Source of the DNA: a virus
Length of the DNA: 23,643 bases
Strand: one strand, 5' to 3'
UHGV virus genome: UHGV-1377021
Shown: in pieces, positions 2,614-6,794 of the stretch
Numbering within the stretch: position 1 is the stretch's first letter
Layout of the letters: each line of letters opens with the position of its first letter
Made by a program: the position numbers and the translations under genes
The notes under the pieces: model-generated
The model's database searches: none
Seen by the model: only the letters and a program-made list of their open reading frames with translations
What the model was told of the DNA's origin: nothing

Positions 2614-2798
2614 ACGCCACAATTCAAACGATACCAGAGCTTCTTATCCAGACACGAGGCAATCAGACCGAAGTGGCGAGGATGCTTTCCTGCGCAAGAG
2701 GAACAGTGCTCAAGTACAACCGAGACAGCAAAGGTGAGCGTCACGTAATAGTTAACGGCGTCCTGATGGTCAAACAGGGCAAGAGGGGAAGACGATGA
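2610..2798 (+). CDS. ninH: NinH-like small DNA-binding protein
   Basis: 62 aa, IPELLIQTRGNQTEVARMLSCARGTVLKYNRD...VIVNGVLMV, resembling lambda NinH as remembered; overlapping start/stop with neighbours. Confidence 0.6.
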   Translation: MNATIQTIPELLIQTRGNQTEVARMLSCARGTVLKYNRDSKGERHVIVNGVLMVKQGKRGRR

Positions 2799-3283
2799 GC
2801 ATAAGAGAACTAAACCTCACCAAAGAACAGCACGAGTGGCTGAATGGCTGGCTTGAACTGTGGGGCGCATGGGTTTATTCAGGTCGTCTGGAAAAGCGCA
2901 TGAGCAGCGTAATAGCGAAGTTCATGGAGAGCGTAGAGCCGGGAAGAATTATGACAAGGCCAATGTGTAATGATGATGATGGAATGTTGATTTCTCAGGT
3001 CGTCGATTCCGTCATGTACATTGACAAGAAAGCCTTTGGCATCCTCCTCAGCTACTACGCTCATGGATCTTCCAAGCACGCCATTGCATCTTACTATCAT
3101 CGTGTCGCAAGACCTCGCAAGATGTTATGCCGGGGCGGCGGGCGCATTCAAAAACCATCGCTCGCAACCTGTCGCCGGGAAGTTGACGAAATCCTCAATG
3201 CCTCGTTGTTTATGATTTATCCGGTTCTGGATAGTGCGTTTAAAAACCGGAAACGTGTAGAGAAAATTAAACATGTAGCATAG
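2795..3283 (+). CDS. Q: Late-gene antitermination protein Q (phage 82/21 QuuD type)
   Basis: 162 aa with the WLELWGAWVY...RPMCNDDDGMLISQVV pattern typical of the Q82-type family; last gene before the late promoter and lysis cassette. Confidence 0.75.
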   Translation: MSIRELNLTKEQHEWLNGWLELWGAWVYSGRLEKRMSSVIAKFMESVEPGRIMTRPMCNDDDGMLISQVVDSVMYIDKKAFGILLSYYAHGSSKHAIASYYHRVARPRKMLCRGGGRIQKPSLATCRREVDEILNASLFMIYPVLDSAFKNRKRVEKIKHVA

Positions 3284-3287
3284 AACG

Positions 3288-3325
3288 TGTTGACATCATT
3301 GAGCAAATGAGCAACACTATTCACA
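3288..3325 (+). promoter_or_regulatory. Candidate Q-dependent late promoter (PR'-like) with qut region
   Basis: Exact TTGACA -35 hexamer at 3290-3295 directly after the Q stop; the -10 element is not clean (CACTAT/TATTCA candidates at 19-22 nt spacing). Confidence 0.4.
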
Positions 3326-3331
3326 TAAGCT

Positions 3332-3370
3332 GCCGTTAGTGACTCTTAAGTTGCAACGGTGGCTTTTTTT
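3332..3370 (+). terminator. tR'-like intrinsic terminator just downstream of the late promoter
   Basis: CCGTT(3333-3337)/AACGG(3355-3359) stem with a long loop, followed by GGC and a T7 run (3364-3370). Confidence 0.45.
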
Positions 3371-3448
3371 GTTTGCACAACAGGTAAGAGCATTGAACCC
3401 GCAGACCTCGCGGAATTGGTGAAAGGTGCCGCGCAGTGCTCTTATCGT

Positions 3449-3576
3449 TGTGGTGAAGCTCAATGGCGAGCTAGCAGATAGGCGACAGTGAAAATACTAG
3501 TCATGTAGCTGACCGCCGCGCGTACTGCAATCGGCAGCGCACCGATGGAAGCCGGTTCGATTCCGGCCGCCACAAC
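3449..3576 (+). ncRNA. tRNA-like element (degenerate or interrupted; not a canonical tRNA)
   Basis: Near-consensus T-arm GCCGG-TTCGATT-CCGGC at 3551-3567; 7/7 acceptor pairing between 3449-3455 and 3568-3574; D-arm-like GCTC-AATGGC-GAGC at 3458-3471; anticodon-arm-like stem 3530-3534/3542-3546. But there is about 58 nt extra between D-arm and anticodon arm, no U33, and no CCA. Confidence 0.3.
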
Positions 3577-3585
3577 CCAAACTGA

Positions 3586-3635
3586 GCCGTAGCCACTGGC
3601 TATCCTGAATTCATCAGTGATAGTTACGCTGCGGC
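3586..3635. repeat. 50-nt imperfect palindrome/hairpin centred near a GAATTC site
   Basis: Outer 8-bp stem GCCGTAGC/GCTGCGGC (one G-U), inner 9-bp stem CTATCCTGA/TCAG(T)GATAG with a 1-nt bulge, 5-nt loop ATTCA; no U-tract follows. Confidence 0.5.
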
Positions 3636-3821
3636 CTTCTACACATGACCTTCGTGAAAGCGGTGGCAGGAGGTTGCGCTAACAACCTCATGCCGTTTTG
3701 CCCGTGCATATCGGTCACGAACAAATCTGATTACTAAACACAGTAGCCTGGATTTGTTCTATCAGTAATCGACCTTATTCCTAATTAAATAGAGCAAATC
3801 CCCTCAATGAAGGGGTAGAGC

Positions 3822-4025
3822 ATGTACCGTATGGACAAAATCAGAGAATGGTTCAGTTACAGCTTCGGAGGACTGACTGCGATGGGTGGCATTCTCTCCC
3901 TGAATGACTGGGCTGTCATCATTGGTATTCTTTGTACTGTCGGCACATTTGGCATCAACTGGTACTACAAGCGCAAAGAGCGCGAGGACAGATTGAATGG
4001 CAATGTCACCGGCACTACGAAATAG
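3822..4025 (+). CDS. Holin, small class II/pinholin-like, with a dual-start motif
   Basis: 67 aa beginning M-Y-R-M (two Met separated by a basic residue, as in the lambda S107/S105 dual-start arrangement); two hydrophobic segments, the first Gly-rich ([13 protein letters not shown]), and a charged C-terminus; directly upstream of and overlapping the endolysin. Confidence 0.7.
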
Positions 4026-4500
4026 CGTAATAGCGGCGATAAGTGGCGGGGCTATTGCTATAGCATCTGTGTTAATCACTGGACCAAGTGGTAACGATGG
4101 CCTGGAAGGTGTCAGCTACATACCATACAAAGATATTGTTGGTGTATGGACTGTATGCCACGGACACACCGGAAAAGACATCATGCTCGGTAAAACGTAT
4201 ACCGAAGCAGAATGCAAAGCCCTCCTGAATAAAGACCTTGCCACTGTCGCCAGACAAATTAACCCGTACATCAAAGTCGATATACCGGAAACAACGCGCG
4301 GCGCTCTTTATTCGTTCGTCTATAACGTGGGCGCAGGCAATTTCAGAACATCGACGCTTCTTCGCAAAATCAACCAGGGCGATATCAAGGGCGCATGTGA
4401 TCAGCTACGGCGCTGGACATACGCTGGCGGTAATCAATGGAAAGGACTGATGACTCGCCGTGAGATTGAGCGTGAAGTCTGTTTGTGGGGGAAGCAATGA
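3997..4500 (+). CDS. SAR endolysin (T4-lysozyme-like muramidase with N-terminal signal-anchor-release domain)
   Basis: 167 aa; N-terminal Gly/Ala-rich weakly hydrophobic stretch ([19 protein letters not shown]) followed by a GLEG...YKDIVG...WTVCHGHTG block carrying the E-D-T catalytic arrangement of phage-21-type lysozymes. Confidence 0.85.
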
Positions 4501-4934
4501 GCAGAGTAACCGCGATTATCTCCGCTCTGGTTATCTGCATCATCGTTTGCCTGTCATGGGCTGTTAATCACTACCGTGATAACGCCATCGCCTACAAAGA
4601 GCAGCGCGATAAGGCCGCATCCACAATCGCTGACATGCAGAAGCGTCAGCGTGATGTTGCAGAACTTGACGCCAGATACACAAAGGAGCTTGCTGATGCT
4701 AATGCGACTATCGAAAGTCTCCGTGCTGATGTTTCTGCTGGTCGTAAGCGCCTGCAAGTCTCCGCCACCTGTGCAAAGTCAACGACCGGAGCCAGCGGCA
4801 TGGGCGATGGAGAAAGCCCAAGACTTACAGCAGATGCTGAACTCAATTATTACCGTCTCCGAAGTGGAATCGACAAGATAACCGCGCAGGTTAACTACCT
4901 GCAGGAGTACATCAGGACGCAATGCCTTCGATGA
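4497..4934 (+). CDS. Rz: Rz i-spanin
   Basis: [31 protein letters not shown]... matches lambda Rz from memory: N-terminal TM anchor then coiled-coil-type periplasmic domain. The track ORF starts 4 codons upstream at 4485. Confidence 0.85.
4696..4881 (+). CDS. Rz1: Rz1 o-spanin (lipoprotein) embedded in the +1 frame of Rz
   Basis: [33 protein letters not shown]...: lipoprotein signal with a lipobox Cys and Pro-rich mature region, entirely inside Rz, as in lambda. Confidence 0.75.
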
Positions 4935-6365: not shown

Positions 6366-6794
6366 ATGAATATGGCGACTGAATCAAAAGCTGGTCGCCC
6401 CTCTGATTATATGCCGGAGGTGGCTGACGATATCTGCTCGTTGCTTTCTTCTGGCGAGAGTTTGCTGAAAGTATGTAAGCGTCCTGGTATGCCGGATAAG
6501 TCCACTGTTTTCCGCTGGTTGGCAAAGCATGAGGATTTTCGCGACAAGTACGCGAAGGCAACTGAGGCACGAGCTGATTCTATTTTCGAAGAGATATTCG
6601 AAATTGCTGACAATGCGATTCCAGATGCTGCTGAAGTGGCAAAGGCAAGACTTCGCGTTGATACACGCAAATGGGCGCTGGCCCGAATGAATCCCCGTAA
6701 GTATGGCGACAAGGTAACTAACGAGCTTGTCGGCAAAGACGGCGGCGCAATTCAGATTGAAACATCACCGATGAGCACTCTATTCGGAAAATGA
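6366..6794 (+). CDS. Terminase small subunit (P22 gp3 / Sf6 gp1 type)
   Basis: 140-142 aa, MATESKAGRPSDYMPEVADDICSLLSSGESLLKVCK...; I recognise this as essentially the Sf6 small terminase sequence. Start may be the ATG at 6366 or 6372. Confidence 0.85.
   Translation: MNMATESKAGRPSDYMPEVADDICSLLSSGESLLKVCKRPGMPDKSTVFRWLAKHEDFRDKYAKATEARADSIFEEIFEIADNAIPDAAEVAKARLRVDTRKWALARMNPRKYGDKVTNELVGKDGGAIQIETSPMSTLFGK

Follow-up and report, generated by a model that had tools for sequence, protein, structure and literature searches.

Background

Small RNAs of phages that resemble a transfer RNA (tRNA) and are embedded in a leader or a tRNA cluster have precedents in T4 species 1 RNA and STnc100. In T4, species 1 RNA (rnaC, 139 nucleotides (nt)) and species 2 RNA (rnaD, 119 nt) are annotated as stable RNAs adjoining tRNA-Arg in the tRNA cluster, and we know of no function assigned to either. 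Transfer-messenger RNA (tmRNA) and YrlA, like the element described here, keep a tRNA-like acceptor, T arm and elbow and have the anticodon arm replaced; the topology of YrlA is permuted, the RNA ending at the Ro-binding stem. In phages P1 and P7 (C4) and P4 (CI), RNase P cuts an operon leader and so frees a small regulatory RNA, which controls that same operon. STnc100 has been detected as RNA by reverse-transcription quantitative PCR in outer-membrane vesicles (PMC12370729), and in plant mitochondria the t-elements, tRNA-like acceptor structures within a longer transcript, serve as processing signals (PMC1920247). Here we describe a tRNA-like element at positions 3447-3576 of UHGV virus genome UHGV-1377021, a stretch of 23,643 nt that we analysed as a whole and call the window. 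The element lies in the untranslated leader between the antiterminator gene Q and the holin gene of a lambdoid phage or prophage.

Lambda-type untranslated leaders are among the most studied stretches of DNA, yet the cassette is unannotated: we found no description of it in Rfam 15, RefSeq annotation or full-text literature searches, and we regard it as new. We are highly confident that the element belongs to a family of functional structured RNAs and is not a pseudogene, because all of its helices, including an arm foreign to the tRNA cloverleaf, are kept by compensatory changes in differing genomic contexts. As to what the RNA does, our preferred reading, to which we give a probability of roughly 45%, is a composite one: the cassette would be released as a stable, dimerising tRNA-mimic RNA of about 130 nt that acts in trans, and the cut that releases it would also sever the leader.

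Results and discussion

Architecture of the element

Positions 3447-3576 fold into a closing stem of 9 base pairs (bp), a D arm, an extra arm of 57 nt, an anticodon-like hairpin with a 5-bp stem and a 7-nt loop, and a near-consensus T arm. The parts are:

3447..3455, + strand: 5' strand GUUGUGGUG of the closing (acceptor-like) stem, pairing with 3568-3576
3456..3472, + strand: A8 A9, D arm and U26, near-invariant among 44 distinct variants
3473..3529, + strand: extra long arm of 57 nt, covarying
3496..3501, + strand: self-complementary hexamer ACUAGU in the apical loop of the extra arm, putative site of kissing-loop dimerisation
3530..3546, + strand: anticodon-like hairpin (or class-II variable arm) with stem AUCGG/CCGAU and 7-nt loop CAGCGCA
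3551..3567, + strand: T arm GCCGG-UUCGAUU-CCGGC with a near-consensus T loop
3568..3576, + strand: 3' strand CGCCACAAC of the closing stem, followed by CCA AAC and not by a free discriminator base and CCA

The minimum-free-energy fold of the single sequence has the same shape, but its energy beats that of shuffled sequences only modestly (z = -1.9), and the above-chance evidence is therefore comparative. It comes from a MAFFT alignment of 44 distinct variants. In this alignment five of the nine closing-stem pairs show compensatory changes. The initial annotation had described a perfectly pairing acceptor stem of 3449-3455 with 3568-3574; these segments do pair, but through six Watson-Crick pairs and one wobble (U3454.G3569), and the stem is really 9 bp and not 7, because the two adjoining pairs, -1:73 (UA 20, GC 14, AU 6) and -2:74 (GC 38, AU 4), also form and covary. 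A free discriminator base and a conserved CCA are absent, and the 3' flanks vary (ACCC, ACAC, CCAC, UCAC, AUCA, UACA). Positions 8 and 9 are AA in every variant. The D-arm-like hairpin already recognised lies at 3458-3471 and pairs GCUC (3458-3461) with GAGC (3468-3471) around the loop AAUGGC, which contains GG, and its stem is 99.4% paired.

About 58 extra nt had been reported between the D arm and the anticodon arm. The segment is there, at 57 nt (3473-3529), and it is a conserved, covarying arm and not filler. Its basal stem joins AGCAG (3473-3477) to CUGCA (3525-3529), with three of the five pairs covarying. Next comes an internal loop of conserved sequence, AUAG (3478-3481) opposite GCGCGUA (3518-3524), followed by an inner stem of variable sequence (about 3481-3490 with 3508-3517), nine of whose ten pairs covary, and an apical loop of 18 nt. 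Compared by eye with the internal loop, neither the k-turn nor the sarcin-ricin motif fits. The anticodon-like hairpin is 100% paired and almost invariant in sequence, and it lacks U33, as had been noted, with A at position 33 (3536) and C at 37. The T arm is present exactly as first described, its stem being 99.1% paired with two of five pairs covarying (CG, UA, AU). A tertiary pairing of the CAGCGCA loop with GCGCGUA (GCGC/GCGC) found no support, variants such as CAUCGCA showing no compensating change.

Two loop positions vary together. Position 3464 in the D loop (position 16/17) and position 3561 in the T loop (position 59) hold the same base in 72 of 74 variants (U/U 34, C/C 37, G/G 1), whichever long arm lies between them. 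In tRNAs, positions 16/17 and 59 are neighbours in the 'variable pocket' of the elbow. A same-base covariation of this kind, which is not a base pair, would fit a D-loop/T-loop elbow contact in an L-shaped fold; genetic linkage could also have caused it.

Compensatory changes and distribution of the family

Pattern scans of viral, genome and metagenome collections, together with phage records, yielded 198 parsable copies of the cassette, 76 of them distinct. Chance pattern matches were left out (L088 from the genome-collection scan and eight from the metagenome scan). Because the scan patterns were derived from the element itself, the collection scans favour close relatives. RNAalifold, given the 44 distinct homologues and no structure, predicted six helices that agree with our hand-built structure. 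In the explicit structure 91.8% of cells pair, compared with 32-47% when the partners are slid by one to three columns, and both-side (compensatory) changes are found in 20 of 38 pairs, the number of covarying pairs and of pair types being a more robust measure than the cell counts. The observed values were reached in 0 of 500 shuffles.

Among the named hosts of the phages and prophages that carry the cassette are Escherichia, Salmonella, Klebsiella, Enterobacter, Superficieibacter and Pantoea. For the block 3434-3576, identity to the window is 95% in the Salmonella Skatevirus phages seszw, Skate, Akira and INT55, lies at 79-81% in Pantoea phage PdC23 and in Salmonella phage gmqsjt-1, and is 73% in the P22-like BIS08P22; across this range of 73-100% overall identity the loop sequences are invariant. 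Given that coliphage and Skatevirus copies are 95% identical, the cassette moves as a discrete unit. Among 5,426 complete E. coli genomes, 175 contain it, at 193 places, and no RNA gene is annotated over the cassette in the listed RefSeq records of those genomes. A covariance model of the family, R1, whose E-values are rough, scores the window copy at 154.5 bits and finds no second copy in the window. Deletion mutants of phage seszw in the searched collection all keep the element; the genome-reduction paper on this phage is silent on tRNA or intergenic regions.

Where the cassette has been annotated at all, it has been given other identities: a 58-nt 'tRNA-Ser' in Salmonella phage vB_CECAV_048 (L001 3087-3144), a 'polyubiquitin-A' coding sequence in two Escherichia phages (ON470589, ON470594) and a 'hypothetical protein' in others. 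One contig labelled as a Cellvibrionaceae metagenome-assembled genome (L087) is 100% identical to an E. coli prophage leader over the stretch examined, and its label probably reflects contamination or mis-binning.

Relation to tRNA

The element is not a working tRNA. ARAGORN reported no tRNA or tmRNA gene in the window, and Rfam gave nothing at gathering thresholds in the window and no tRNA match at E <= 10 in 3250-3850, which agrees with the initial view of a non-standard tRNA; nor was a tRNA called at the element, at the gathering threshold, in 16 variant loci. In a small sensitive search the homologue of Pantoea phage PdC23, alone among the homologues, reached the threshold of the Rfam tRNA model (37.4 bits against a gathering value of 29). 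That alignment makes the long arm the anticodon stem, with 45 nt replacing the 7-nt loop, and the short hairpin a class-II variable arm. Model R1, applied to real phage tRNAs, gives 17-40 bits and aligns their anticodon arm to the short hairpin; the best of these matches is P1 tRNA-Asn (40 bits), whose acceptor GAUGGUG/CACCAUC resembles that of the element. Because each model takes a different hairpin for the anticodon arm, we describe the element as a five-way junction. In-silico removal of the 57-nt arm leads ARAGORN to call a tRNA, nominally Arg (GCG), and when the interior of the arm is swapped for 7 nt it calls a class-II tRNA. The tRNA scaffold is thus intact around one additional arm.

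With canonical tRNA (RF00005) the element shares the acceptor/T-arm stack, the T loop UUCGAUU, a D loop that contains GG, a hairpin of 5 bp and 7 nt separated from the T arm by a 4-nt linker, and a genomic slot that phage tRNA-Asn and tRNA-Arg also occupy. It differs in its 9-bp closing stem, its paired 'discriminator', the absence of an encoded CCA, A8 in place of U8, a CAGCGCA loop (in nearly all variants) without U33 or R37, and the conserved fifth helix (3473-3529), which makes a five-way junction of what would be a four-way cloverleaf. Judged from the sequence, then, the top half of a tRNA, that is, an acceptor-like stem on a T arm with a D/T-loop elbow, is kept, and the features of decoding and charging are lost. 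The family is probably descended from a phage tRNA. An intron does not explain the additional arm: on inspection, however the inner hairpin is cut out, the remainder is not a plausible 7-nt anticodon loop having U33 and R37, and 45-48 nt is far too small for a group I intron.

The initial annotation had suggested a decayed or insertion-disrupted tRNA, and a functionless pseudogene split by a 57-nt insertion would indeed leave an ARAGORN-callable tRNA once the arm is removed, an anticodon-like loop without U33 and R37, and no CCA, in a slot that elsewhere holds real tRNAs. The comparative data contradict this suggestion, and we consider it extremely improbable. In 198 copies from at least six genera all helices are kept by compensatory changes, those within the supposed insertion among them. 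The loops are invariant. Pairwise identity falls as low as 73%, too far for the alignment to represent one recent clone, and the contexts into which the cassette has spread are unrelated.

A self-complementary loop

The apical loop of the extra arm contains a self-complementary hexamer in all 76 distinct variants (198 loci), at the same offset in nearly all. Five perfect types occur (ACUAGU 38, UCUAGA 17, UCGCGA 13, GCUAGC 3, ACCGGU 1), and the Enterobacter-type copies have AAUAUU a few bases upstream and the wobble-palindrome UCUGGA at the usual offset. Lying mid-loop, such a hexamer has no partner within its own hairpin, yet self-complementarity survives through five types, and from this we infer a kissing-loop homodimer, in which two copies of the RNA probably pair through the palindrome. 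The kissing-loop RNAs of the HIV-1 dimerisation initiation site (DIS) type likewise expose a self-complementary hexamer in a loop, with covariation, a likeness that we draw here from sequence comparison.

Repeats and a palindrome can also be protein-binding DNA, and the cassette might then be a recombination linker or 'boundary sequence', an attachment site or a homing site. The region beside the slot is annotated as 'bsq3/bsq4 boundary sequence' in CUS-3, the closing stem is the exact point at which alleles are swapped, genes for HNH endonucleases are close by in HK629, BIS08P22 and Enterobacter-type prophages, and tRNA genes are common integration targets. We nevertheless hold a DNA-level role to be very improbable. 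The helices contain abundant G.U and U.G pairs (one acceptor pair, for instance, has 11 U.G and one long-arm pair 24), which are tolerated only as RNA of the + strand; the T-loop and D-loop consensus is strand-specific, and the orientation of the cassette is always that of the operon. No integrase or transposase is linked to it.

Genomic contexts

The placement of the element in a Q-to-holin late leader holds good, the window having Q on one side and holin, lysozyme and Rz genes on the other. Late leaders account for 149 of the 198 copies. Of these, 113 resemble the window, and the remaining 36, of Enterobacter/Klebsiella type, show the order HNH endonuclease gene, hairpin, stem A (a hairpin domain described below), cassette, intrinsic terminator, holin, endolysin. 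A further 42 copies lie in N leaders. In one such locus (L121), boxA and boxB of nutL are nearly those of lambda, one base differing in the stretch compared, and nutL is followed by GGCUUUGGGG-[cassette]-CCACCAAAGCU and then by the ribosome-binding site of an N-like gene. From this layout, the cassette caps a long N-leader hairpin whose lambda counterpart encloses a different interior. The lambda N-leader hairpin is reportedly an RNase III site, cleavage at which is said, from work in D. Court's laboratory, to relieve N autorepression.

In the Salmonella Skatevirus phages the module is a stand-alone unit: it is preceded by a sigma-70-like promoter (TTGACA-17-TAGATT), ends in a terminator-like hairpin, encloses no open reading frame (ORF) and runs antisense to the flanking tail genes. 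Real tRNAs follow the cassette on the same strand in phage gmqsjt-1 and at locus L052. That related phages carry tRNA genes in the slot between Q and the lysis genes, as the initial annotation had it, is borne out by phage L and Sf6 (PMC8022706), and 933W likewise has real tRNA genes there.

Genes for HNH homing endonucleases lie close to the leader module in HK629 (L007 1929-2441) and at two other loci (L090 435-920, L006 3590-4090). In HK629 and the Enterobacter-type prophages the HNH gene is found between the late promoter region and the tR'-like hairpin.

A shared slot with exchangeable interiors

Upstream of the cassette the leader forms a further conserved module, of two parts:

3376..3382, + strand: conserved single-stranded motif CACAACA, directly 5' of stem A
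3383..3446, + strand: stem A domain, from the fold of 3374-3600

Stem A pairs GGUAAGAGCAUUG (3383-3395) with CAGUGCUCUUAUC (3434-3446) around a variable interior and abuts the closing stem with no linker. Elsewhere it is kept by compensatory variants (GGAGAGAGUAU/GUACUCUCUUC, GGUAAAUCAAU/GUUGGUUUAUC, AGGUAAUGGCA/UGCCAUUACCU), and the domain is also present in lambda and, twice, in the ban leader of phage P1. The motif (C/U)A(C/U)AACA precedes stem A in most of the variants in which stem A pairs well, even when the sequence of the stem differs.

The upstream CACAAC is the same sequence as 3571-3576 in the 3' strand of the closing stem and could pair with GUUGUG (3447-3452) in its place. A fold of the upstream segment by itself gives a hairpin of about 19 bp in which GUUGUG takes part; when the full region (3374-3600) is folded, the motif stays unpaired and the closing stem is preferred. 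N leaders have the same topology with CCAAAG / CUUUGG / CCAAAG. The three segments CACAAC/GUUGUG/CACAAC may thus form a co-transcriptional strand-exchange switch. Variants of the L090 type argue against selection for the upstream pairing, as the upstream motif would there mispair (C.A) and the downstream strand covaries (A-U).

A boxA-like UGCUCUUA lies at 3437-3444, in the 3' strand of stem A, and five bases on the GU-rich UGUGGUG (3449-3455) resembles boxC. In the lambda late leader and in Skatevirus the sequence at the boxA-like position is UGCUCUUUCC. These features raise the question of a nut- or rrn-like co-transcriptional module, in which the boxA-like and boxC-like sequences would recruit Nus factors and shield the leader from Rho, the three repeated segments would be a folding switch, and the tRNA-like interior would be cargo or a folding clamp. 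The match of UGCUCUUA to the boxA consensus (rrn UGCUCUUUA, lambda CGCUCUUA; PMC2724277) speaks for such a module, as do the 5' strand of the N-leader closing stem, which is the GU-rich sequence just downstream of nutL, the topology of segment, complement, cargo and segment again in late and N leaders alike, and the occurrence of the module in the long untranslated leader of the P1 ban operon. We judge it improbable all the same. Stem A covaries to sequences that are not boxA (L052, L024, L090), so it is the pairing that is conserved and not boxA, and the L090-type changes that speak against the switch count here as well. To be bound by NusB/NusE, moreover, boxA must be single-stranded.

Comparison of the window with HK75, CUS-3, HK629 and lambda shows flanks that are near-identical up to GUUGUGGUG-AA and again from CGCCACAAC on. 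Between these borders, in one closing-stem slot, at least four unrelated interiors are found: the tRNA-like cassette, 215 nt in CUS-3, IME10 and Huey, 117 nt in HK629, JEP4 and E212, and about 67 nt in lambda, whose closing stem is GUUGUGCUG/CAGCACAAC (loci of the alternative interiors: L002 2068-2286, L007 2568-2687, L091 558-642). Both the CUS-3 and the HK629 interior contain a D-like hairpin whose loop is GGCUGA and a T-like one whose loop is AGUUCAGCA, and the CUS-3-type frame recurs in phage P1, Hafnia phage Meifeng and Aeromonas phage 62AhydR11PP. On the alignments, the leader hairpins of N and late operons are a shared slot for interchangeable structured RNAs.

In Meifeng the frame (L151 2501-2713) is followed by tRNA-Arg, tRNA-Thr and holin, and in 62AhydR11PP (L152 2501-2725) it stands just before the terminase genes; these two phages are unrelated, the element lies in a late leader in each, and in both elements GCUGA of the D-like loop is complementary to UCAGC of the T-like loop. 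The P1 ban operon leader has two tandem modules, each with a hairpin, an ACAAC motif, stem A and a closing-stem domain (L153, about 1900-2100 and 2190-2390). They lie downstream of tRNA-Asn and tRNA-Thr and antisense to the annotated ORFs plp and upl, which may, given these modules, not be real genes.

A processing signal or a released RNA

Such a slot could serve in cis only, as in the other option of the initial annotation, a tRNA-like element for processing or stability of the late transcript. The element would then be a processing or insulator signal comparable to the t-elements, recruiting RNase P, RNase Z, RNase E or RNase III to cut the leader from the first gene of the operon, so that lysis or N messenger RNA (mRNA) is freed from the antitermination complex or given its 5' end and its stability; only the tRNA-like top half would matter, and the excised piece would have no function. 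This would account for the conserved tRNA top half. It agrees with the position of 191 of the 198 copies in late or N leaders, on the sense strand, just 5' of the operon's first gene, and with the real tRNAs that hold the same slot in other phages (933W; PMC8022706). The slot alleles, too, share the closing stem and AA, and those of CUS-3, HK629, P1, Hafnia and Aeromonas also have the D-like and T-like hairpins; what is shared is only the part that RNase P needs. A role confined to cis would not account for the selection that acts on the long arm and its palindromic loop, on the invariant CAGCGCA hairpin and on the AUAG/GCGCGUA internal loop. The Skatevirus unit has no downstream ORF and therefore nothing to be processed for, and a 9-bp stem without RCCA has poor RNase P substrate features. 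We regard this explanation as possible but doubtful.

In the composite reading that we prefer, the cassette would be transcribed within an operon leader, here in the Q-dependent late transcript downstream of tR' and elsewhere in the pL/N leader or from a promoter of its own, and would fold at the tip of the leader hairpin. Host enzymes would excise it, RNase P where stem A meets the closing stem, or RNase III along the long N-leader stem, with 3' trimming to follow. Such excision is plausible in that the cassette caps the N-leader hairpin between nutL and the N ribosome-binding site, and in that the late-leader closing stem starts where stem A ends. The product would persist as a stable L-shaped RNA and pair with a second copy through the loop palindrome. 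In trans it would act as a tRNA look-alike, occupying or diverting a factor that recognises tRNA, such as a host tRNA-targeting defence nuclease or a tRNA-handling enzyme, and the same cut would separate the leader from the downstream lysis or N mRNA.

Several points weigh against this. We found no expression, processing or stability data for the cassette. Canonical cleavage by RNase P at +1 is disfavoured by the pairing of -1:73 and by the lack of an encoded CCA. The same closing stem holds unrelated interiors in lambda, CUS-3 and HK629, and the interior may therefore be dispensable for the role of the slot. Only 6 of the 198 copies are near real tRNAs. None of the neighbouring protein genes proved to be conserved, the contexts (N, holin, terminase, tail genes, HNH endonucleases) being too varied to point to a partner, and no candidate target emerged. 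Many of the copies are closely related, so that covariation counts overstate independent events, and the palindrome could be a feature of the DNA.

A wider form of the proposal can be framed, although the odds are clearly against it. The family would be an undescribed class of dimer-forming tRNA-mimic RNAs of lambdoid and other enterobacterial phages, carried at the tips of leader hairpins, in N leaders between nutL and the N start and in late leaders after tR', released by the host enzymes that process tRNA and rRNA, and decoying or inhibiting in trans host factors that recognise tRNA, such as anticodon nucleases or further defences directed at tRNA. As a general 'socket', the closing stem would have received one structured RNA after another (this cassette, the CUS-3, HK629 and lambda alleles, perhaps STnc100), exchanged in an arms race.

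The family is unusual in three respects: it mimics tRNA, it has a five-way junction, and its palindromic loop covaries. Should the RNA prove to be released and active, it would join tRNAs and anti-small-RNAs as an RNA tool of phages against the host and might illuminate T4 species 1 RNA and STnc100. If it is a processing signal only, phages would be using tRNA look-alikes to cut leaders, as organelles do.

Comparison with named RNAs

STnc100 (RF02076) is the closest named relative of the slot. This small RNA of lambdoid and Stx prophages precedes the lysis genes in the late region, being found in 933W 75 nt after stx2B (207.7 bits), and is multi-branched within the frame gcaUGGUG-AA ... CACCAugc, to be compared with GUUGUGGUG-AA ... 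CGCCACAAC in the window; this is a shared frame and not proof of homology. The second P1 module scores 33.4 bits with the Rfam STnc100 model; beside these two positive controls, 933W and P1, window positions 3250-3850 give no match to the model at E <= 10. Unlike the element, STnc100 has an unrelated interior and its own terminator, and we saw in it no T loop, D arm or palindromic loop.

T4 species 1 RNA resembles the element in that its T arm (CCGGG-UUCGAAU-CCCGG) is perfect and its paired ends enclose two long inserted hairpins, and it folds far better than shuffled sequences (L224 1409-1547, minus strand; z = -4.6). It differs in its inserted arms, in having no palindromic loop that we noted, and in its place in a T-even tRNA operon and not a lambdoid leader; its score of 12.9 bits (E = 0.22) amounts to no detectable similarity. 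By analogy, the two RNAs may fall into one functional class, that of tRNA-top-half mimics.

From tmRNA (RF00023) the element is set apart by the lack of a tag reading frame and of pseudoknots. It was rejected as a tmRNA, the only Rfam signal being a partial T-arm/acceptor alignment of 20.2 bits against a gathering threshold of 47, with 316 model positions skipped. YrlA (RF02553) gave no match at E <= 10 in the window scan, and the ends of the element form an acceptor-like stem and not a Ro-binding stem. The Rfam C4 model had no match in the window, and no antisense target was identified for the element.

Flanking genes and the rest of the leader

From ORFs and Pfam matches, the window is a lambdoid phage or prophage. 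The features around the leader module are:

2251-2613: RusA
2795-3283: antiterminator Q (Pfam Phage_antitermQ)
3329..3372, + strand: tR'-type intrinsic terminator of the short late-promoter transcript, read from the sequence
3577..3821, + strand: remainder of the leader up to the holin start codon at 3822, from alignments, ORFs and Pfam
3822-4025: holin (ORF and Pfam matches)
3997-4500: lysozyme (ORF and Pfam matches)
4485-4934: Rz (ORF and Pfam matches)
6791-8203: large terminase subunit (ORF and Pfam matches)

The gap between Q and holin is an untranslated leader of 538 nt that opens with the tR'-type terminator. The latter pairs 3329-3337 with 3355-3363, has a T-run at 3364-3370 and forms the upstream boundary of the leader module; in alignment its sequence is identical to the annotated 'terminator Tr'' of phage HK75. 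A simple terminator scan missed it because its loop is 17 nt. Downstream of the cassette, positions 3577-3821 are highly conserved with lambda, CUS-3, HK75 and HK629. Directly 5' of the holin start codon, a hairpin CCCCUCAAUGAAGGGG at 3800-3815 shares its location with the structure that precedes lambda S and gives a weak chance match to a CRISPR repeat model; it may control translation of the holin.

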